47,946 nt of DNA from a virus (lineage: Duplodnaviria; Heunggongvirae; Uroviricota; Caudoviricetes). The stretch lies in IMG/VR virus record IMGVR_UViG_2681813146_000002; one strand, given 5' to 3'. The position numbers were made by a program, and so were the translations under genes. Under the pieces are notes generated by a model that made no database searches, was not told where the DNA came from, and worked only from the letters and a program-made list of their open reading frames with translations. Shown here one piece after another: positions 11,645-23,267 of this stretch; position 1 is the first letter of the stretch; each line of letters begins with the position of its first letter.

Positions 11645-12577
11645 ATGGCAACAGTGACAACGATACCAGCAGATATAACTAATCTGAAAAAAGAAATCGA
11701 CTCTATTAAGAGTGATGTTGCTAAAAAACTGGAAATTTCAGGCGGCACAATAACTGGTGATCTAACAGTTGTTGGTGGCATTTCTGGTGAGCTGTCCGGA
11801 AATGCCTCAACAGCCACAAAACTAAAAACCGCGCGAAAGATTAATTCCGTTTCGTTTGATGGTTCAAAAGACATTAACCTCACGCCTGAAAATGTTGGTG
11901 CATTGCCAATAACCGGAGGAGCTCTTACCGGCGGTTTAACGGCTGCTGGCGAGATTGTTTCCAAATCAGGAAACGGCTTCCGCATCGTACAGGGTAACTA
12001 TGGATTCTTTATCCGAAACGATGGTTCAAACACATACTTCATGTTGACCAATTCGGGCGACAGCCTGGGAACATGGAATAGTTTAAGGCCGCTTACCATT
12101 AACGATGCCAGTGGTGGAGTAACTATTGGGAACGGTTTAACGGTTAATGGTTCTCTTGGTCTGGGTACTAAAAATGCTCTTGGCGGTAACTCTATCGTTC
12201 TTGGCGATAATGATACTGGTTTTAAACAGAACGGTGACGGCCTGCTTGATGTTTATGCAAATAGCCATCATGTATTCCGCTTTCAGAATGGTACTTTGCA
12301 GAGTAACAACCCAGTTAATGTCGCAGGTCAGGTGACTCCATCAGATTACGGTAATTTTGATTCCAGATATGTGAAAGATGTTCGACTTGGTTCACAACAA
12401 TATTATGGAGTGAACAACTGGCAAACATGGAATTTCCAGTGCCCGTCAGGTCATGTATTGTCTGGTATTAATGTTCAGGATACAGGGTCCAACTCTGCCG
12501 ATAATATAGCGGGCGTTTATTACAGACCCGTTCAAAAGTATATAAATGGCACTTGGTATAATGTAGCGAGCGTTTAA
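11645..12577 (+). CDS. Tail fibre protein 2
   Basis: 310 aa. Shares the [23 protein letters not shown] module with fibre 1; glycine-rich repeats. Confidence 0.65.
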
Positions 12578-12578
12578 T

Positions 12579-13106
12579 ATGATGCACTTAAAGAACATAA
12601 AAGCGGGCAACGCTAAAACACTGGAACAGTATGAGTTAACAAAGAAACACGGAGTTATCTGGCTTTACTCTGAGGACGGAAAAAACTGGTATGAGGAAGT
12701 GAAAAACTTTCAGCCAGACACAATAAAGATTGTTTACGATGCAAATAATATTATTGTCGCCATCACTAAAGATGCCTCTACGCTTAACCCTGAAGGTTTT
12801 AGCGTTGTTGAGGTTCCTGATATTACCTCCAACCGACGTGCTGATGACTCAGGTAAATGGATGTTTAAGGATGGTGCCGTGATTAAGCGGATTTATACGG
12901 CAGGCGAACAGCAACAACAGGCCGAATCACAAAAGGCCACGTTACTTTCCGAAGCTGAATCAGTTATCCGGCCGCTGGAACGCGCTGTCAGGCTGAGCAT
13001 GGCAACAGATGAGGAGCGTAGCCGACTGGAAGCCTGGGAACGTTACAGTGTTCTTGTCAGTCGCGTGGACACAGCAAACCCCGAATGGCCAGACAAACCA
13101 GAATAA
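12579..13106 (+). CDS. Tail fibre assembly chaperone (Tfa-like)
   Basis: 175 aa immediately after the fibre gene. N-terminal pattern typical of Tfa proteins. Confidence 0.6.
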
Positions 13107-13261
13107 AGGAGTGTTGTTATGTTCATCATTGACTGGAGTTAGCCCAGTAGTATGATGCTCGCAAAACGAGATCCAATTTAGATCCTTTTACTGGTGGATT
13201 ATCGTTCGATCAGCGAGAGACTTCGTGCATGACCGAAAGTGTTGTGGTAGAGTTCTCTTAA

Positions 13262-13278
13262 AACCACGTAACGTGGTT
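13262..13278. promoter_or_regulatory. Operator-like palindrome AACCACGT-A-ACGTGGTT upstream of the repA control region
   Basis: Perfect 8-bp arms. Same AACCAC-N5-GTGGTT architecture as the palindromes flanking the CI-like gene. Confidence 0.5.
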
Positions 13279-13325
13279 ATGATTGTGGGTGTCTGGTTGG
13301 AAAATGACCAGATATGGAAACAAAA

Positions 13326-13349
13326 AGCCCGCAGATAAATCTGCGGGCT
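13326..13349. ncRNA. CopA-like stem-loop in the repA leader (candidate antisense RNA or target hairpin)
   Basis: Hairpin AGCCCGCAGATAAATCTGCGGGCT followed by a second long stem (arms 13360..13375 and 13416..13431) spanning the repA start region. Transcript strand not determined. Confidence 0.4.
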
Positions 13350-13446
13350 TCTTGCGACATCCACGGAAAACCAACAACCAATTAACCATGGGCGCCTCGA
13401 CAACTCCCATTATACGTTGGTTTTCCGTGGACGCAAGAGCGAACAT

Positions 13447-14295
13447 ATGGATAGACCAATGCCGTCTCTACGTTCCGCTTACGTTTGTAATTTGTCGCCG
13501 GAGTTCCAGCCTCCAAAGCACCATACGCACAAGCTGCCGCTGGTGTTATCTGATGCTTTACAGCGCATTAATGGGCGTGATCTTACGTGTGAGGTTGCGT
13601 TCTACGTTAATCAACCGTCAGAGCGGAAGCGTCGGATAAACGAGCATCGTCGTCGGGCGATTAATGCTGTGATTGCTGCGATTTTGCACCATGTAAACAT
13701 CATTTCTAAGCGGGTTCTGGCCAGTGCTGAGGCGTTGGCTGATTTTTGCGGCCTGTCTACCGTATCCGAAGCTGGGAACAAGTCTATAACACGCTGTACA
13801 AGGGCGTTGTCGCAACTGAAAGCGTTAGGTTTTATTGATTATGAACGTCGCTGGGATCGGGTGAATAAACAGTATTGGCCAGCGAAAATAGAGATTCGTG
13901 ATCAACTGCTGGAAACCGTTGGTATTACTGAACAAGCATGGAGACGTGCGGTTAGCCAGAAACTTAATTACTTCAATGCGAAGAATAGCGAACGGCTTAA
14001 AAAAGCGATAACGGAGGCTGATTATAAGCGTATTGTTATTCAGGAGCAGATGGAGAATGTATGGCGTCAGAGGAAGACGGCCAGAGAGATAAAGGCAAAA
14101 CAGAAAGCAGCGGAGAGAGCTGCGCGTCTTGTTCGGGAAAAGGGAGAGGCCGAACTTCGTCATCAAATCACTAGAGAGGTTAGCCAGGAATTTGCTGATG
14201 GCATGTATCCTGGAGCTGACCTTGCATATTTACGATCCCTCGTTGAGCAGCGTTATAACAGGTTAAGAAAGACCTGGAAATCACTCCAACATTAA
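13447..14295 (+). CDS. repA: Plasmid replication initiator, IncFII RepA1-like
   Basis: The segment SITRCTRALSQLKALGFIDYERRWD and the basic C-terminus resemble IncFII RepA1 as I recall it. Start is uncertain: TTG 13417, ATG 13447 or ATG 13459. Confidence 0.6.
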   Translation: MDRPMPSLRSAYVCNLSPEFQPPKHHTHKLPLVLSDALQRINGRDLTCEVAFYVNQPSERKRRINEHRRRAINAVIAAILHHVNIISKRVLASAEALADFCGLSTVSEAGNKSITRCTRALSQLKALGFIDYERRWDRVNKQYWPAKIEIRDQLLETVGITEQAWRRAVSQKLNYFNAKNSERLKKAITEADYKRIVIQEQMENVWRQRKTAREIKAKQKAAERAARLVREKGEAELRHQITREVSQEFADGMYPGADLAYLRSLVEQRYNRLRKTWKSLQH

Positions 14296-14436
14296 CCCAC
14301 CTGAATGATGAATCCGGTTTTACCGGAGGATTATCTACGTCGCAATAAAATATCTGTTCAAAAAACAATCTAAATTAGTTTTCTCTAAACCTGAACACAG
14401 CAAAAATATCGCCTTTACAGGCATCGGCTAATAAAG

Positions 14437-14445
14437 TTATCCACA
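14437..14445 (+). promoter_or_regulatory. DnaA box TTATCCACA in the candidate origin downstream of repA
   Basis: Exact consensus 9-mer about 140 bp after the repA stop, in an AT-rich noncoding stretch. Confidence 0.5.
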
Positions 14446-14545
14446 GTTTTGATATGTATATGCAAATGGTTTTTTATAATAGATGCACTAAACAAATAAA
14501 TGCAAAATCACTTTCTTTTATTAAAACTTTCTTTATTTAACTTAC

Positions 14546-14730
14546 GCAGGCTTTGCCTGTGAATATGTTCGCCCTTGCAGCGAGCTAAAGCTCGCGCCGG
14601 TTCGAGTCGCTACGCTCAAATATACCTCCTCCGGCACTTGCCGGAGGCATGGAGCAGCCTGATCATCCTTTTCGAAACGGCGCGTTTCGAACTATACAAA
14701 ATCAATTTATATAAGGCCGAAATAAGGCCT
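14546..14730. other. Cluster of at least five short GC-rich hairpins in the origin-proximal noncoding region
   Basis: Inverted repeats CAGGCTTTGCCTG, GCGAGCTAAAGCTCGC, CCTCCGGCACTTGCCGGAGG, TTCGAAACGGCGCGTTTCGAA and AGGCCGAAATAAGGCCT. Confidence 0.4.
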
Positions 14731-14938
14731 ACGGCCGGGCTTTGCAGGAGGAAGGGGCGAGCCTTATCAATAAACGTCGATAAATACGCACACAGTAGCC
14801 ATCAGAACGCGATAAAACGTAAGAAACATCATTTCCTATTAGACATAGAAAACTTGTCTTATACGCAATGTAGTAAATTTCTATTGCCACATAGGAAAAG
14901 ATTTCCTACCATCGTAGATATAATAAATGGAGATGGTT

Positions 14939-15226
14939 ATGGATAAAGATACTGTTTTAAAAATGTTGAATCCGGCTTGTTTAAAAAAAGCGGATGAATG
15001 GGAATCTCCTACATGTGGAGAAGTTCGGGCAGTCATTGGCCTGACCGGAATGAGTGGCTCGCAGTTGGCCAAAAAACTAGGCTTAAAAGATAGCCGCAAT
15101 GTTCGCAACTGGCAGATGTTAAAGGAGTCCACATCCAGATCCAGCATTCCGTATGCAGCCTGGGCGCTGCTGTGTTACTTCGCTGGGTTAGGGTTAATCT
15201 TCATTGATAACAAAACAGATGTTTGA
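14939..15226 (+). CDS. Putative DNA-binding protein with a C-terminal hydrophobic segment
   Basis: HTH-like segment MSGSQLAKKLGL and C-terminal AAWALLCYFAGLGLIFI. Start taken after GGAG; ATG 14927 is an alternative. Confidence 0.35.
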   Translation: MDKDTVLKMLNPACLKKADEWESPTCGEVRAVIGLTGMSGSQLAKKLGLKDSRNVRNWQMLKESTSRSSIPYAAWALLCYFAGLGLIFIDNKTDV

Positions 15227-15249
15227 AACATGCAAATATGAGGTTTGTT

Positions 15250-15513
15250 ATGGAACTTGTACGCAAAACACGCAAAGAGTTCTTGGACCTGTATCGCATG
15301 GGAGCTTTCACTTGTGTTGTGGCTACCCAGGACGAAGTGACAAAAAGCTGGCGGCTTTTTGCTCTCAATAAAAAAGGGATTGCCGTTTTTATTGAAAAAG
15401 CCCGTGGTGGTATCCGCGAATGGGCGGGATTGAATTATGTGGCTGATTTTTGCGCAGCTATGGGGATTCGTCGCTGGGAAGTCCATATGCCAGGAGTAAA
15501 GTCACAAAAATAG
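15250..15513 (+). CDS. Hypothetical protein
   Basis: ORF downstream of the preceding gene. Start chosen at MELVRK after a GAGG-like ribosome-binding site. Confidence 0.35.
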   Translation: MELVRKTRKEFLDLYRMGAFTCVVATQDEVTKSWRLFALNKKGIAVFIEKARGGIREWAGLNYVADFCAAMGIRRWEVHMPGVKSQK

Positions 15514-15757
15514 GGCTTTCGCGTCGAAAATGAGGCGAAACTGAAAACGAGATTTCATTAACAAATAAGCAACATAAAAAACGGTGGAAAACGCCCAGGA
15601 AAACATGATCTTTTGAGCGGATTTTTTAGATCCGACAATGAACGGTGATCCGGTGGTGCCGATAACGTCCATTATGTTAAATAGCCCCGTTTTTCTTGAA
15701 ATTATAACCTACGGGTTATATAGTCAGTGGTATAAACTACAGGTTATAGGATTGAGC

Positions 15758-16105
15758 ATGTGGACGGTACTTTTTAGCCAGCGATTTGACGACTGGCTAA
15801 ATGAGCAAGAAGACGCTCTTCAGGAAAAGGTTTTGGCTGATTTGAAAAATCTACAGGTTTACGGACCTGAGTTACCCAGGCCATATGCCGATACCGTAAA
15901 AGGTTCTCGGTACAAAAATATGAAAGAGCTTCGCGTTCAGTTTTCTGGCCGTCCGATAAGAGCCTTTTATGCGTTCGATCCGATTCGCCGGGCTATCGTT
16001 CTTTGTGCAGGAGACAAAAGTAACGATAAGCGGTTTTATAAAAAACTGGTGCGTATAGCTGAGGATGAGTTTGCAGCACATCTGAACACACTGGAGAGCA
16101 AGTAA
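15758..16105 (+). CDS. higB: Toxin of a type II toxin-antitoxin pair (RelE/ParE superfamily, HigB / Gp49-like)
   Basis: Motifs RAFYAFDPIRRAIVLCAGDKSNDKRFY typical of Gp49/HigB-like toxins. Start ATG 15758 after AGGA. Followed by an HTH partner with overlapping stop/start. Confidence 0.6.
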   Translation: MWTVLFSQRFDDWLNEQEDALQEKVLADLKNLQVYGPELPRPYADTVKGSRYKNMKELRVQFSGRPIRAFYAFDPIRRAIVLCAGDKSNDKRFYKKLVRIAEDEFAAHLNTLESK

Positions 16106-17012: not shown

Positions 17013-17285
17013 ATGACGGGTTATGAATTGAAATTATGGCGTCGTGGGATGAACTGGACGCAGGAGCGAGCCGCCGAAGAATTTGGGATATCGTTGGCTA
17101 CATATAAGCGATATGAGAAGGGGGAGCCGCCGAGGGTCATTGAGATGGCCATTCGCGTTCTGTCGTTTGACGATATGGTTAAGGATCTTTCACACCTTGA
17201 TAAAGATGCGATTCTGTTAAGGCTGCAAACCCTTGTATGGGAAAAGGTTAAAGTGTCGTCAGAATTGGAACAAGGGATCAAATGA
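17013..17285 (+). CDS. XRE-family HTH protein
   Basis: HTH WTQERAAEEFGISLATYKRYE. Start ATG 17013 after GAGGAGG. Confidence 0.5.
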   Translation: MTGYELKLWRRGMNWTQERAAEEFGISLATYKRYEKGEPPRVIEMAIRVLSFDDMVKDLSHLDKDAILLRLQTLVWEKVKVSSELEQGIK

Positions 17286-17336
17286 TCCTTTACGGATCGT
17301 TTTATGGTGGTGTAATGTAAGCGCCAGAAAGACAAA

Positions 17337-18566: not shown

Positions 18567-18594
18567 AGCGCCCAAATCGGGCGCTTTGTTTTAT
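18567..18594. terminator. Bidirectional terminator between convergent genes
   Basis: AGCGCCCAAATCGGGCGCT hairpin with flanking T/A runs. Confidence 0.55.
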
Positions 18595-19733
18595 GGTTTT
18601 GCACCTGCGGCCAGTTTATCCGCAGATATCTTTATCAGTTCCTGTAGTGTCCTGGCTGGTAGGTTTGCATCCAGTACGCTGAGTATGCTGTTGTGATCTG
18701 CCTGGTCGACTACTTTGCCTGTCGGTGGTAGTAGCTTGAGCTGAGGATTCAGGTTTTCGTCAAAGCTGATCAGTGCTCTGGCGTTTCTGAGCAGATCAAG
18801 AAGTAAGGCTGATATCACATTTTCCTGAGTCATTGCTGGCAGATTTAGCGCCGCTTTGGTTTTCCCTGTTGCCTTGTCAAACTCCTTGATTAGTTTCTTC
18901 CTGTAGTTCGGTTCCGTTAATAGCCGATTATGCTCTGTTGCCGCGCGGATAATCGTTTTTTCCTGGTACAGTCGTTTAGCCAGATCACGCTCGTACTGTG
19001 TTTTTAACACGCTGCTGATAGCGTTAAAGGCTTCAATGTAGGCCAGCTTGATATCTTTCACGCCTGGACCGTCGATACTCTCCATGAGCAAGGTAAATCC
19101 GTCTTTTGTCATGCGATAGATTGTTATTTCGCGGTCGCTTCCTTCCAACGGTCGTTGCTCTTTAAAGAAATGACGCGCCGCAGCTGTGCGAGGAATGCGT
19201 AACGCATCGATGGCCATAACGATGGAATTGTTTGTGGTGCTGAATGCTTGGGCAACATCGGCTGAGGTTGTGAGTGGCTCGTTATTGCACACCTTAATGT
19301 AAAACATCGGTTTGGCGTTGAGCGTATCGACAACCTCACGAGCATTGTTTGGCGAGACGGTTACGGTCGCGGCCGTTTGCGCGTTCTGGTTGAAGTAGCA
19401 GTCTTCCAGCCGTTCGAATACATCCCACGCCTGATCGGTTTCGAGCATTTTAGCGTGACGTGCAGCCCCGCGTTCGGTCCAGAGAATTAGGGAGCGGGCA
19501 TTTTTACCAACTAACCCGATTGTTTCGGGTCTGTTCTTGAACTCGCGTAATTCGTTTTTTTCAATTTTAAAGTAATGCTTTCCGGCTACGAATCGCGTCG
19601 TGTTGTTCAGAAAGTTATCAGAAATGTTTTTGATTTTTGTTCCGTATAACTGCGCCAGAAGTTCACTAGTGATAACGGGGATCTGGTTATGCAGGATAGG
19701 CTGTAGGGTGTTAACGGTCGGAAGCGTTTTCAT
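18591..19733 (-). CDS. Antirepressor, Rha-family N-terminal domain with KilAC-like C-terminal region
   Basis: 380 aa. N-terminal region resembles phage regulatory protein Rha by recollection. Confidence 0.55.
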   Translation of the reverse strand: MKTLPTVNTLQPILHNQIPVITSELLAQLYGTKIKNISDNFLNNTTRFVAGKHYFKIEKNELREFKNRPETIGLVGKNARSLILWTERGAARHAKMLETDQAWDVFERLEDCYFNQNAQTAATVTVSPNNAREVVDTLNAKPMFYIKVCNNEPLTTSADVAQAFSTTNNSIVMAIDALRIPRTAAARHFFKEQRPLEGSDREITIYRMTKDGFTLLMESIDGPGVKDIKLAYIEAFNAISSVLKTQYERDLAKRLYQEKTIIRAATEHNRLLTEPNYRKKLIKEFDKATGKTKAALNLPAMTQENVISALLLDLLRNARALISFDENLNPQLKLLPPTGKVVDQADHNSILSVLDANLPARTLQELIKISADKLAAGAKP

Positions 19734-19921
19734 TTTGCACCTCCCATAACTACTTTGGTTACGAGGGAGATTTTTGCGTCAGAAACAGCGTTATCGTTGC
19801 TGGCGATGCGCATAGCTTCGCGCTCGATGATTTCAGCCAGGCGGAATTTATCGGCGTATGAGGCTTTCTTGAGAAGGATCTTTACGAGGTTGACGTAATA
19901 GTCATGGGGTAGGTTTGTCAT
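19730..19921 (-). CDS. Small protein upstream of and coupled to the antirepressor
   Basis: Start taken at the internal ATG after GGAG; the longer ORF extends to 19957. Stop overlaps the antirepressor start. Confidence 0.35.
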   Translation of the reverse strand: MTNLPHDYYVNLVKILLKKASYADKFRLAEIIEREAMRIASNDNAVSDAKISLVTKVVMGGAK

Positions 19922-20215
19922 TGTGATATCTCCAGTATATGGAACTATCACCGCCATTCGAGGCTAATCAAATGGTGGTGAGCCGTACAGGGTTAGCCTT
20001 ACCGGACACAATGACGAACCGGCGCGGATTTCTCCGCCCCTGTACGACCCACCATAATTTGGGCGTAACAGTGCTCTACGCATAAAAAAACCGCTAACGC
20101 GGTATGCGCCATCGTGTTATTCAGGAGGCTAATCCCGGCCGTAGATTTTGCTACGGCTCGGAAAGTGTCCACCAATGGCGCATTTATGTCAATACGGCGG
20201 GATTTTAACAGAGAC

Positions 20216-20232
20216 AACCACATAGTGTGGGT
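20216..20232. promoter_or_regulatory. Operator-like site AACCAC-ATAGT-GTGGGT upstream of the antirepressor operon
   Basis: Matches the AACCAC-N5-GTGGTT family with one mismatch. Confidence 0.4.
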
Positions 20233-20674
20233 TTATTGGTAGGCAGAAACAAAAAAACCGCCCTATTGAGGACGGTTCTTTCGTGCTGATCGGATTCGCG
20301 GTCCTTTCAGCATTACGTTGTTGTATAAACAACCACGCAAGCACAAGCAGCAAGTTAATTTTACCCAAAAGGTAATAATAGTCCACTATTATGCTTCATA
20401 AAATTGTGGTTCTTGTTGTGCCTGCAAACTCACAGATTGTGGGTAGGTTACTGATTTTGTGAAAATAAACGAGTTTTTTCGTTTAATTTCTTTCCTATAA
20501 CTAATCTTAAAATAATCGTAAAATACCTGTGGACCTTCCCGCCGATTCGCACCCGGGCACCGACTTTAGGGGAGGATTCTCCGTTGCCGTACATGCAAGC
20601 ACAAGCAGCCGTGCTTGCTCTCGCGTTGTTTTCGTCGGTGGGGATGCCGTGAAACGGCCTGTAAGGGCCATACA

Positions 20675-20797
20675 ATGAAAAAATACTGTATGTGTATTTT
20701 TATCGTTGTTACTGGAGCTTTGTTTACGCCACATGGGGAGGGTTGGAAGATTACTGATAACGCTCTGAATGTGACGATAAACATTAGCAGCAAGTAG
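20675..20797 (+). CDS. Small hydrophobic peptide (40 aa), candidate membrane toxin or moron peptide
   Basis: MKKYCMCIFIVVTGALFTPHGEGWKITDNALNVTINISSK after an AAGGG ribosome-binding site, followed at once by a strong terminator. No Hok motif. Confidence 0.3.
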   Translation: MKKYCMCIFIVVTGALFTPHGEGWKITDNALNVTINISSK

Positions 20798-20802
20798 CGA
20801 TT

Positions 20803-20826
20803 AGGCCCCTTCGGGGGCCTTTTTTA
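20803..20826 (+). terminator. Rho-independent terminator
   Basis: AGGCCCCTTCGGGGGCCT hairpin followed by TTTTTT. Confidence 0.65.
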
Positions 20827-21047
20827 TGGTTGAATTTAAACGCTGGAGCGCATTAAACCTTTCAGAACTGCTTCACGTACCCATTCTGGCCTGGTAGATA
20901 GCAGGGCAAATAAGCAACCAGCTTGCAGCCGTTTGAGGTCGGTTAGACGAGTTTTCAGTAACCGTGTATATTGTTGCTCGGACATAACAAATTCCCCTTG
21001 TTGTGTCGCGACGGCCAACAGTTGGCGCTGGAGGCCGTCACCTTCTC

Positions 21048-21296
21048 TTACTTCTGGTTGTATTGAGCCTTGAGTAACTCAAAAGATTTTGTCAGCACTT
21101 CTTTCAATGACATATCCATTGAGCTGGCGAACGTTTTGTACTCGCGTTTAAATTCAGGGTCGACGTTAAACGCCATTTGTGCCCCACCTGATTTGGTTCT
21201 GGTCGGCGTTTCAGTCGGGTCGAAAACCTGCGGTTGTTCGATTGATGGCGGTACGCCTTTGCTGTTCTTTTTCGGTGGTTTTGATGGTGCGGCCAT
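21048..21296 (-). CDS. Centromere-binding partition protein, ParG-like (ribbon-helix-helix)
   Basis: 82 aa with a disordered basic N-terminus and a C-terminal RHH-like segment. Immediately downstream of the ParA-like gene. Confidence 0.5.
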   Translation of the reverse strand: MAAPSKPPKKNSKGVPPSIEQPQVFDPTETPTRTKSGGAQMAFNVDPEFKREYKTFASSMDMSLKEVLTKSFELLKAQYNQK

Positions 21297-21339
21297 GTGT
21301 ATCCCCTTTTATATAAATCTATAAAACTATAATTATATA

Positions 21340-21993
21340 TTACGCGGCAGTAGTCAGAGCCTCAAGCTGATTGATAATCCCCTGGATAACATCGTCTGCC
21401 TTTTTGCGTGGCGCAACGTATGAGCACTCAATAAGGCTTAAGCCCTTATCCTGAGCTTTGCTCAGAGCTGGCTTGTGGGGAATGTACTTATCGACAACAA
21501 AGTATGGCGTATTAGCCAGGTACTCTTGGGCTTCAATATAGTCAGCTTCGTTTTCAGCCGCGCCGGAAAACACCATGCAAATTTTCTTGATTGGTACACC
21601 CTTTTTAACGATGCCGTGAGCTGTGTTAACGGTGGTTTCCAGGTCATCGGTAGAGAATCTGGTTGGCAAAATAACCATATCCAGAAATTCAGAGAGCTTC
21701 GGTACTGATTCAGATGCGTAGGCACCGCCATCGACGATAACCAGGTCGTATACTTCTGATTCGATGATTTTCTGGACTTGTGATGGTGTGCCGCACGGCT
21801 GCGCCGCGATTGCTGGTTCGATATTGTTGGCCATTCTGCGTTGTACCCAACGCGTTACCGTTCCGTTAAGCACATCCATATCGATCAGGCATACATTCCA
21901 GCCAGCCTTTGCATAAGCAACTGCTAAAGCACGGGCAATTGTTGATTTGGTTACGCCGCCTTTTCCGTTGAAAATACCTACAGAGATAGTCAT
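21340..21993 (-). CDS. parA: Partition ATPase, ParA/ParF-like
   Basis: Deviant Walker A GKGGVTKST near the N-terminus. Start taken at MTISV; the longer ORF extends to 22008. Confidence 0.7.
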   Translation of the reverse strand: MTISVGIFNGKGGVTKSTIARALAVAYAKAGWNVCLIDMDVLNGTVTRWVQRRMANNIEPAIAAQPCGTPSQVQKIIESEVYDLVIVDGGAYASESVPKLSEFLDMVILPTRFSTDDLETTVNTAHGIVKKGVPIKKICMVFSGAAENEADYIEAQEYLANTPYFVVDKYIPHKPALSKAQDKGLSLIECSYVAPRKKADDVIQGIINQLEALTTAA

Positions 21994-22020
21994 TTGTCGA
22001 GACTCCATGTGTTTGGTTAT

Positions 22021-22118
22021 ATAATTCTATAAATCTATATTTATAGAACGAGGTAAGCATAACCAACTTTTTGGCGGATGAAAAGCGTTTTATATAATTA
22101 TATAAATCTATAATCATA
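22021..22118. repeat. AT-rich palindromic repeat units upstream of the ParA-like gene (candidate centromere/operator)
   Basis: Repeated TATAATTCTATAAATCTATATTTATAGA and TATATAATTATATAAATCTATAATCATATA units. A related unit lies at about 21303..21332 upstream of the ParG-like gene. Confidence 0.5.
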
Positions 22119-22143
22119 TAAGCGGGCGTTAGCCCGCTTGCAG

Positions 22144-22518
22144 TCAGAGGTCAGCTATCGTTGATATCAGTTGATTTGCTAGCTGTCGCTGTTTACGTGA
22201 GAGGGTTAGAGCTGCTTCTGAGCGGTCGCTAAGAGGGGTATTCTCATCGAGAATCATGAGGCATACAGAAATGATAGCTCTGTTATATGCCATCAATGAC
22301 TGGCACAGCTTTGATACAGAAGGCACATCGTATTGTAAGGCTGTTTTGAGGCAGGCTTTTTGCTCGTAAGCAAGATGAAGGGTAGATGATATCCAGTCGA
22401 TATCTTTCTCATTATCAATGATTTGGCATAACATACACTCAATCGCTATGTTCAACGCTTGGATTTCGATTCCAGCAGTGATCAGAGTTTCGTTTTTATT
22501 GGCTGTATGTAATTCCAT
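22144..22518 (-). CDS. Hypothetical protein between the repressor gene and the partition genes
   Basis: 124-aa ORF. No recognisable motif. Confidence 0.35.
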   Translation of the reverse strand: MELHTANKNETLITAGIEIQALNIAIECMLCQIIDNEKDIDWISSTLHLAYEQKACLKTALQYDVPSVSKLCQSLMAYNRAIISVCLMILDENTPLSDRSEAALTLSRKQRQLANQLISTIADL

Positions 22519-22610
22519 GCGTAGCCTCTTTTATACTTTCACATGTTGTCAAAACCACAAAATGTGGTTTTTTTGAGCGTAGAAATGCACGGCTTTCGCC
22601 GTGCTGTGTA

Positions 22611-23267
22611 TCATAACCAGTTGACAACACTAACTACGCGGCCCAGAACTTTATAACGCTTAAATTCCTCGTTATTCAGATGCTTAGTGTTCATTTCAGC
22701 ATCCCTTTCGGTTGACAGCATAACAGCATTGTCACCCGGTATGACTCTACAGTGCCTCAAAACAACCAGGCCATTTCTGTCTTCAAGGGCATAGATCCCC
22801 TCATGAATCTCTGTATCGTCTGTATCAATCAGGACTTGGGAGCCAGGGGATATTGTTGGTGACATTAACTCATCGTTGCTCTGGAGAACTGACAGAGACG
22901 ATGGGTTGATGTTCTTGCTTCGTAGAATCTCCTGTTCTATCGCCAGCACTGGCTTTTCTCCGGCGTGCGATGCTATGTCATTTTTTATAGCTACAAGCCC
23001 AGGAATAACAGGAGCGTTAGTATTCTGGGGTGGGAACGGGTTATCTGTTAAGCACGCGATATAAGGCGCTGATGCTTTCAGGGCGTGCGCGATTTTCTTG
23101 ATGGCAGGTATAGATGGTTGTCTTAATCCGGCCTCATAGTTCTGCAAGGTGCTTAAGCCTATTCCAGTGACTTGCTGGAGATCTCCGGCAGTCATGCCGG
23201 ATTGTTTCCGTAGAGTCTGAATGCGCAGACCTATTTCTTTCTTGATGTTCTCGTCGTTGCTTTTCAT
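22611..23267 (-). CDS. Prophage repressor, CI-like (XRE HTH plus S24 LexA-type C-terminal domain)
   Basis: N-terminal HTH IGLRIQTLRKQSGMTAGDLQQVTGIGLSTLQNYE. C-terminal S24-like region. Divergent from a Cro-like gene with palindromes in between. Confidence 0.65.
   Translation of the reverse strand: MKSNDENIKKEIGLRIQTLRKQSGMTAGDLQQVTGIGLSTLQNYEAGLRQPSIPAIKKIAHALKASAPYIACLTDNPFPPQNTNAPVIPGLVAIKNDIASHAGEKPVLAIEQEILRSKNINPSSLSVLQSNDELMSPTISPGSQVLIDTDDTEIHEGIYALEDRNGLVVLRHCRVIPGDNAVMLSTERDAEMNTKHLNNEEFKRYKVLGRVVSVVNWL

Follow-up and report, generated by a model that had tools for sequence, protein, structure and literature searches.

The stretch of DNA analysed here (47,946 nucleotides, IMG/VR virus record IMGVR_UViG_2681813146_000002; hereafter the window, whose coordinates are used throughout) is essentially a whole phage-plasmid, and its phage is temperate and of the myovirus type. 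The name phage-plasmid is used because structural and lysogeny genes occur together with plasmid replication and partition genes on an extrachromosomal element. Positions 13107-14760 of this ~48-kb element hold a full theta replicon of the IncFII/R1 superfamily, made up of a structured leader, the initiator gene repA and an origin directly downstream. An initial annotation had proposed an IncFII-style replication control region at this place, and all the features that it listed were found where it had put them or within 1-2 nt.

Relatives of the replicon were graded by RepA identity to the window (100, 81-85, 62-63 and 58-60%), and their loci were compared. Group A consists of five lineages, represented by a core alignment of 8 sequences; 27 further sequences were compared for conservation. 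Group B (for example, L016, L017, L018 and L020) comprises replicons whose RepA is about 60% identical to that of the window. The nearest outgroup, L015, has a RepA that is 63% identical, and an IncFIC replicon, L069, served as control. Variability was counted over 18 close relatives of the 1.8-kb replicon. The features described below rise above chance because they are conserved in these relatives, and not from the statistics of single motifs.

The initiator gene and its origin

The repA gene (13447-14295, plus strand) encodes 282 amino acids from AUG 13447, which is preceded by a Shine-Dalgarno sequence (SD), AAGAG, at 13435-39 and followed by a second in-frame AUG at 13459. Its product matches the Pfam family PF02387 (IncFII_repA; E 8e-44, 150 bits) and the model NF040977 (RepA_IncFII_LM), the latter at 232 bits for a cut-off of 70. 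These matches, together with the homology of the origin to R1 oriR, bear out the assignment to an IncFII-style replicon. With the strict incFII_RepA equivalog TIGR03474, the score was 79 bits, far below the cut-off of 446.9. RepA is 34% identical over 166 amino acids to the IncFIC RepA, whose Met1 aligns with Met5 of the protein proposed here.

The SD and the first AUG (13447) are kept in all lineages, while TTG 13417 is merely the start of the longest open reading frame (ORF). In the window and in L019, AUG 13447 shares its reading frame with repA. In L004, L011 and L022, its equivalent opens an out-of-frame ORF of 13-20 codons that overlaps the repA AUG, and in group B the first AUG opens an ORF of 33-162 codons whose stop overlaps the repA start as ATGA. 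The site of regulated initiation therefore stays the same across lineages, and the window has its tap-like function joined to repA in one frame; no separate tap-like ORF overlapping the repA start was present in the window. In three group B replicons (L016 2516-3004, L017 2516-3004 and L020 112-588), the ORF directly 5' of repA and overlapping its start is 158-162 amino acids long and resembles the N-terminal half of RepA (NF040977, 43 bits, which is below the cut-off); in L018, it has shrunk to 33 codons. The long version could have arisen by duplication and decay and now act as a leader ORF, or it could be a truncated regulator.

For most relatives, RefSeq (PGAP) gives a RepA of 326 amino acids (cluster P0001, 525 member sequences), which is an annotation artefact. 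This protein starts at the equivalent of ATG 13314 (L002 4208-5188) and crosses both the terminator and the long hairpin described in the next sections. The variable loop within that stretch occurs in lengths of 11, 13, 14, 15 and 16 nt, and all three frames are represented. Since the loop length shifts through all three frames, the extension from 13314 is not coding; in the window itself, an additional base in the variable loop interrupts this frame (13314-14295). In practical terms, the 326-amino-acid RepA is the product of an untranslated loop whose length is in frame.

All lineages, and the IncFIC control as well, are colinear over the 630 nt that follow repA. First comes a TCCGG-N-CCGGAGG hairpin, and then, in this order, an A-run motif, a DnaA box, an AT-rich block, five hairpins (a to e) and a GCAGG..GGGG motif. 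Judged by sequence, this origin is homologous to R1 oriR, with a DnaA box and then an AT-rich, presumed RepA-binding region, both downstream of repA. The first hairpin (TCCGG-N5-CCGGA, then GG; 14313-14329, plus strand) lies just after the repA stop, and the same TCCGG..CCGGA hairpin is found at this place in group A, L015 and L069; group B has the variant CCAG-N-CTGGAGG. The DnaA box (TTATCCACA, 14437-14445, plus strand), already recognized in the initial annotation, is the sole exact copy in the 47.9-kb window. Its distance from the repA stop is conserved, as an exact or one-mismatch box is found 123-142 nt after that stop in 12 sequences, and 176 nt after it in L069. The AT-rich block that follows (14446-14545, 21% GC) contains three ATGCA motifs and two TTTCTTT(T)A repeats (14510-24 and 14526-40), and is presumed to be the region of RepA binding and unwinding. 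At the same position, L069 carries TCTTTTAAA and TCCTTTAAA.

At least five hairpins had been reported after the DnaA box, with the guess that they form a single-strand initiation or primosome assembly site. Five are indeed present between 14546 and 14736: a (14546-14562), b (14581-14598), c (14628-47), d (14671-91) and e (14726-36). In hairpins a and b, 3/7 and 3/6 pairs, respectively, are changed on both sides among 11 sequences, and 96-98% of cells are paired, compared to about 33% in slid controls. These two hairpins flank a conserved core, GAATATG..CGCCCTTGCAGCG..CGCGCCGGTTCG. Hairpins c, d and e do not vary in group A, and their group B counterparts are of a different version. Both strands of 14540-14775 fold better than shuffled sequences (z = -2.9 and -3.4).

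Two further observations concern the hairpin region. This core (14557-14629) recurs with 80-90% identity in about 160 other plasmids, from Klebsiella, Enterobacter, Serratia, Citrobacter and Yersinia, and in many of these plasmid records its distance to the record start is about 1.17 kb; it may be a very widespread origin element of the IncFII_LM superfamily. In addition, a 13-nt long-range inverted repeat (14593-14605/14672-14684, 92% complementary) encloses hairpin c and offers an alternative fold of the single-stranded origin; L004 has retained it in part.

The hairpin cluster ends in a G4-like site, so that the guess of single-strand initiation was a good one. A G4-type primase start (G-site) is predicted at 14738-14756 (plus strand), for which the template would be the minus strand, with 5'-CTG-3' at 14747-14745. 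Here GGCTTTGCAGGAGGAAGGG is identical at 16 of 19 positions to the phage G4 sequence formed by GGCTTTGC and, directly after it, AGTAGGGACGG, at the annotated primer start (NC_001420); none of 100 shuffles did as well. The match came from direct comparison with G4, since a blastn search of the hairpin cluster against phages returned only the same phage-plasmids. The CAGG of the G-site is invariant in 11/11 relatives and is also found in L069, about 365 nt beyond the 188-bp oriR.

Masai and Arai, in 1989, reportedly mapped the R1 G-site near that ~365-nt position. One point weighs against the assignment, namely that the three hairpins of G4 lie on the other side of the CTG start than they do here. 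Because the hairpin side differs from G4, the assignment depends on the 19-nt match and its position, and the fine mechanism of priming may differ from that of G4.

With these elements, RepA would act on the origin directly downstream of its own gene, at the DnaA box, the AT-rich TTTCTTT block and the conserved hairpins. After unwinding, DnaG primase would start the leading strand at 14738-56, with the 5' end of the primer at A14746, and synthesis would run rightward, away from repA. In R1, a 188-bp oriR comprises a DnaA box with adjoining RepA binding, and theta replication is unidirectional (PMC5883639). Rightward extension of a primer from A14746 would be consistent with such unidirectional replication of R1 type (PMC5883639).

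The leader and a predicted antisense RNA

Upstream of repA, a candidate promoter (TTGACT-16-TATGAT, 13129-13156, plus strand) fits the consensus at 10/12 positions. Both hexamers are kept in 7/8 aligned sequences, the exception being L011, which is without the -35; the lineages read TTGACT-16-TAT(G/C)AT, and the group B counterpart reads TTGACG-17-TAGAAT. Just 3' of this promoter, two GATC (Dam) sites are found 11 bp apart (GATC-N7-GATC, GATCCAATTTAGATC, 13170-13184). The pair occurs at the same place and spacing in L004, L011, L022 and group B, and in L015 its two sites are slightly closer. It suggests, by inference only, a Dam/SeqA-dependent shut-off of repA after replication. Group B has three GATC sites near the repA promoter, and a similar GATCCTTT..GATC pair is also present in the window at 17284-17298.

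RNA folding had been put forward as a check in the initial annotation, and both strands turned out to be strongly structured: the sense leader folds with z = -7.2, and minus strand 13315-13440 folds at -68 kcal/mol with z = -8.95 (0/200 shuffles were as good). The first leader hairpin, H1 (AACCACG-loop-CGTGGTT, 13262-13278, plus strand), is paired in all 8 sequences, and its loop varies. The second, H2, is a predicted fold at 13289-13315 (plus strand) with a variable loop at 13298-13302, and its stem is kept through differing sequences in L004, L011, L022 and L019.

A 19-codon ORF in the leader (ATG 13279, stop 13336-38) does exist as annotated. A role as leader peptide was rejected, as the ORF is reframed or absent in L004, L011, L022 and L019, and it is not tap-like, ending 109 nt before repA. 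The ORF from ATG 13388 (MGASTTPIIRW...) was likewise discarded as spurious: it has no SD, is absent in group B and varies in stop position, and it appears conserved because its nucleotides are invariant. No copB candidate was found, in that no plus-strand ORF confined to the interval from 13107 to the repA start exceeds 37 codons. A 48-amino-acid ORF (13009-13155) runs in from the tail-fibre assembly gene, and an ORF starting at a TTG (13283-13639) runs on into repA; at the copB position, L069 has a gene of 86 amino acids.

The GC hairpin of the leader (13327-13335/13340-13348) can be extended to 16-nt arms (13321-36/13339-54) that are 94% complementary. On its 3' side, the minus strand reads TTTTTGTTT, compared to only TTCTTG on the plus strand, so that a good U-run follows the hairpin on the minus strand only. 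The best interpretation of the hairpin, from its sequence, is a terminator for an antisense RNA made from the minus strand.

A promoter for such an RNA is predicted on the minus strand (TTGCGT-16-TATAAT; -35 at 13436-13431, -10 at 13414-13409). Its TATAAT lies inside the loop of a 16-bp stem, named P1 below, and is followed on the minus strand by GGGAGTTGTCGAGG. The block 13388-13446 is invariant in the 18 close relatives, and nearly so across the five lineages of group A. The TATAAT and the next 13 nt (GGAGTTGTCGAGG) are also kept in group B (TTGCAT-18-TATAAT), where RepA is only 60% identical and the arms are unrelated in sequence to those of the window. The invariant TATAAT block and the minus-strand terminator with its U-run together define a predicted antisense RNA of about 85 nt (13402-13318, minus strand). 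It would consist of a 5' tail, stem-loop I (13356-13396), the terminator stem-loop (13348-13327) and a U-run, its minus-strand tail being GCGGGCTTTTTGTTT.

Folds of the single antisense sequences gave z values of -6.3 to -6.7, and the consensus fold contains 27 pairs, with compensatory changes at 3 of them. In stem-loop I, three G.U pairs never vary (on the sense strand they would read A.C), and one G-C pair is replaced by A-U in a compensatory manner; in the terminator stem, an A-U pair is replaced by G-C in the same manner. Transcription of the RNA is predicted from these sequence features. Against this reading, the antisense -35 fits only 3/6 positions, so that a scan for consensus promoters missed the promoter. 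A search of 12500-15500 against Rfam returned only sub-threshold matches to Thr_leader and CsrC, which are due to the shape of a hairpin plus terminator, and not to homology.

Antisense control of the replicon is very likely, as the initial annotation had supposed. Its comparison with CopA/CopT, however, did not hold. In a classical CopA/CopT arrangement, the antisense RNA would come from a promoter inside the 5' end of repA, contain the whole 16-bp hairpin and the GC terminator, and sterically block the ribosome binding site (RBS) of a leader peptide or of repA. The very stable hairpin plus terminator on minus strand 13315-13440 would fit such an RNA, the stem is only 3 nt away from the SD, and RepA belongs to the same superfamily. 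But the Rfam CopA model (RF00042) found no match in 12500-15500 even at E<=1, whereas it gave 99 bits on the control replicon. Moreover, minus strand 13440-13500, which is poorly conserved and has indels, contains no promoter-like site, the invariant TATAAT sitting inside the loop instead; and in the window there is neither a copB nor a conserved leader ORF overlapping repA. We therefore consider the classical arrangement to be improbable.

The apical loop of antisense stem-loop I coincides with a hypervariable (AAC)n-like segment (13367-13388). Among the 18 otherwise near-identical relatives, 8 different 15-mers were found in this segment, AACAACAACAAT being one allele. This is the maximum of variability within the 1.8-kb replicon, and only the left homology junction at 13105 is higher. 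Variable recognition loops of antisense RNAs are, classically, the mark of incompatibility determinants, and this small loop is a likely candidate for that role. If so, it would let closely related phage-plasmids co-reside or exclude each other. Variability peaks a second time in the loop region of H2 (13292-13302), where the 18 close relatives have 5 alleles; this loop falls outside the predicted antisense RNA.

The long helix and a proposed switch on repA translation

The two arms of P1 (13360-13375/13416-13431) were found by a mechanical repeat scan to be 16 nt long and 100% complementary, with 40 nt between them. On the sense strand, P1 is part of a long-range helix (13350-13438, plus strand), which also includes a base helix of 7 bp (13350-56/13432-38). 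Across the alignment, 95.7% of P1 is paired and 3/16 pairs are changed on both sides; pairing in the base helix is complete (100%), and its one change is from U-A to U.G. The minimum-energy fold of the free leader is P1 extended by the base helix. Both the GC hairpin and the 16-bp stem had been seen in the initial annotation, which placed the stem across the initiation region, as in CopA/CopT control. The stem instead stops 3 nt short of the SD and 15 nt short of AUG 13447, and it is better described as a sense-only long-range helix whose loop holds the predicted antisense promoter than as the antisense target hairpin.

One may ask whether these inverted repeats are elements of the DNA itself, such as a terminator of the tail-fibre operon, an operator for RepA or a phage repressor, or cruciforms, with no part in copy control. 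The region directly follows late tail-fibre genes, and the repeats are perfect at the DNA level, as this would require. Yet a conserved promoter separates the tail genes from the hairpins, and in group B the same architecture is found after unrelated upstream genes. Furthermore, the arms vary yet stay complementary across the 40-nt spacer, and the invariant G.U pairs are strand-specific. An explanation at the DNA level is thus highly improbable.

An alternative pairing is predicted for the right arm of P1. In this hairpin (13415-13461, plus strand), designated OFF, the right arm pairs with 13445-61, and both AUG 13447 and AUG 13459 would be buried. With the left arm unavailable, this hairpin was the fold of lowest energy in 4/4 tested lineages (the window, L004, L022 and L019), and in group B the equivalent arm pairs over the SD of the leader ORF. 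The cost of opening the stretch from the SD to AUG+3 was computed with 12-20 nt of downstream context: it was 5.6-9.5 kcal/mol in the free state and 7.4-14.4 kcal/mol in the blocked state. The blocked state was costlier in 10/10 of these computations, by about 0.5-8 kcal/mol. For group B, the corresponding values were 3.6-7.8 and 6.9-14.5 kcal/mol, the blocked state being higher in 8/8 cases, by 0.8 to 7.6 kcal/mol.

These results suggest the following mechanism. The promoter at 13129-56 would be constitutive and produce a leader of about 280 nt followed by repA, while the minus-strand promoter inside the leader would yield the ~85-nt antisense RNA, acting as copy-number sensor. In the free mRNA, the left arm would hold the right arm off the start region, leaving the AUG accessible and allowing RepA synthesis at a low rate. 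The antisense RNA would pair with 13318-13402 and strip off the left arm; pairing would probably nucleate between the antisense 5' tail and the invariant apical loop, and at the hypervariable stem-loop I. The freed right arm would then fold onto 13445-13461, both start codons would be buried, and translation would stop. Such a switch would need neither CopB nor a separate tap peptide, the first AUG being in frame with repA.

Several points weigh against the proposed switch. When 45 nt of downstream mRNA are included, the costs of opening the RBS become similar in the free and blocked states for group A, and for the window they are slightly reversed (9.8 kcal/mol blocked compared to 11.7 kcal/mol free). 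The SD itself is paired in the 7-bp base helix of the free state, and because of this the 'ON' state would be leaky at best. Finally, the covariation comes from only five lineages in group A. As the 45-nt context largely erases the difference and the SD is paired when the leader is free, the ON/OFF assignment, which derives from computed folds, is one that we regard as about evenly balanced.

Control might also operate on transcription rather than on translation. The GC hairpin (13327-48) would then partly terminate the sense RNA, or convergent transcription from the internal minus-strand promoter would interfere with the repA promoter, and the long helix would be incidental or bear on mRNA stability, for example through RNase III. 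The hairpin can be read by both strands, with a plus-strand tail UUCUUG, P1 and the base helix make up a duplex of about 23 bp that is a plausible RNase III site, and the weak thermodynamic discrimination between ON and OFF with a long downstream context also speaks for this. However, the plus-strand U-tract is poor, and a terminator located 5' of the antisense target cannot be induced by antisense binding. The covariation of P1, and the recurrence of pairing to the start signals in two versions unrelated in sequence, are what a translational switch predicts. Transcriptional control is therefore unlikely.

Overall, we give a probability of roughly two-thirds to the explanation that 13107-14760 is a replicon for the plasmid mode, with an antisense switch on repA and an R1-type origin with G4-like priming. 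We advance only tentatively, as a possibility, the more specific proposal that a three-helix RNA switch, with an antisense RNA whose promoter lies in the loop, sets the copy number, that the (AAC)n loop is a fast-evolving incompatibility determinant, and that the Dam/SeqA GATC pair may add a refractory period. Nothing here would astonish a plasmid specialist, as the basic kind of replicon is already known. The helix switch, the promoter-in-loop layout and the hypervariable specificity loop, in a widespread phage-plasmid, are apparently undescribed; our search of the literature found no account of this replicon or of the related Yersinia phages vB_YpM_39/41/44.

Distribution, neighbouring genes and known systems

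The replicon was found in 71 of 5,426 complete E. coli genomes (about 1.3%), including that of the reference strain ATCC 25922 (plasmid NZ_CP009073); ECONIH1 is another carrier. All 82 copies are plasmid-borne, and none is chromosomal. Yersinia phages vB_YpM_39/41/44 are 98-99% identical to the 1.65-kb region, and about 60 non-mobilizable plasmids from E. coli, E. albertii, E. fergusonii and Klebsiella are equally close to it; their sizes range from roughly 32 to 94 kb, and most are of 47-52 kb. Those PLSDB records of relatives that were fetched carry no replicon type. A search with RepA in representative genome contigs gave no match. A motif scan of the same contigs gave only two matches, in unrelated metagenome-assembled genomes, which were judged to be due to chance, as were about 12 metagenome matches to an 18-nt motif, which were left out. 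The plasmid pSLy3 was also considered as a related element and rejected, being of SSU5 type and unrelated.

Upstream of the replicon are the tail-fibre and tail-fibre-assembly genes. The left edge of the replicon module lies at 13107-13124, where a DNA invertase gene (hin-like recombinase) ends in most relatives; in the window and six plasmids, the tail-fibre assembly gene adjoins the replicon instead. This alternation of invertase and tail-fibre genes points to a recombination junction beside an invertible tail-fibre segment. Directly after the origin come two small ORFs without Pfam match (14927-15226 and 15223-15513) and, 3' of them, a Gp49/HigB-like toxin gene (15638-16105). In relatives, an HTH antitoxin gene follows this toxin gene, so that an addiction module is likely beside the replicon. 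A lysogeny and partition cluster on the minus strand (18591-23267) includes genes for a Rha/ORF6N regulator (18591-19733), a ParA-type ATPase (21340-22008) and a CI-like HTH/S24 repressor (22611-23267).

The role of phage-plasmids in carrying genes between Enterobacteriaceae is more and more recognized; to our knowledge, the way in which they set their copy number and exclude each other is mostly unknown outside phages P1 and N15. For the present element, the analysis provides a testable map of promoter, antisense gene, switch helices, origin and primase start.

With the IncFII replicons R1 and R100, the replicon shares the initiator superfamily (PF02387, NF040977), an origin downstream of repA, and the order of origin elements, namely the TCCGG..CCGGAGG hairpin, the DnaA box, TCNTTTAA-like repeats, GC hairpins and GCAGG..GGGG. 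It also shares, as a prediction, a countertranscript encoded in the leader. The basic replicon of R1/R100 has the layout copB-copA/CopT-tap-repA-CIS-oriR-G site. The predicted antisense 5' end lies about 45 nt from the AUG, compared to 18 nt in the control replicon; with a 5' end this far away, inhibition would work by refolding, and not by steric block. The origin is also compressed here, the predicted G-site being about 120 nt past the end of the oriR equivalent, compared to about 365 nt in the control.

The logic of the proposed switch is that of IncB, IncI-alpha and IncL/M plasmids, in which translation depends on a long-range interaction of the target region with a sequence beside the RBS, and the antisense RNA (RNAI) acts as a competitor of this interaction. 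In IncB and IncI-alpha, this interaction is a pseudoknot of a few base pairs, whereas here it would be a plain helix of 16+7 bp. Those systems also have a leader peptide (repY/repB leader), which is absent from the window, and here the predicted antisense promoter lies in the loop of the activating helix. The Rfam pseudoknot model PK-repBA (RF01089) found no match in the window, and an IncB-like pseudoknot was rejected, as the sole downstream complement (13489-13502) is permuted and not kept in L004. In the outgroup L015, PK-repBA was found at 2869-2989 with 49 bits, in the context of a conjugative plasmid (TrbC). The presence of such a module within the same RepA clade shows that control modules have been exchanged in this clade, where the predicted helix-switch, pseudoknot and CopA types are swapped in a modular fashion.

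The likeness to the phage G4 origin of complementary-strand synthesis, a primase-only priming system like the G-sites of R1, F and R100, lies in the primer start (16/19 positions, including the template CTG) and in the adjacent GC-rich hairpins. The arrangement is not that of G4: there, three stem-loops lie 5' of the CTG on the template and the primer copies stem-loop I, whereas here hairpins 14546-14736 are found 3' of the template CTG. With the phage-plasmids P1 (an IncY RepA with iterons), N15 and SSU5, the element shares a plasmid-type replicon in a temperate phage genome, beside partition and toxin-antitoxin genes. A repeat scan of the region noted no tandem array of iterons, and the replicon differs from those of P1, N15 and SSU5 in being of R1 type, with a predicted control by antisense RNA.

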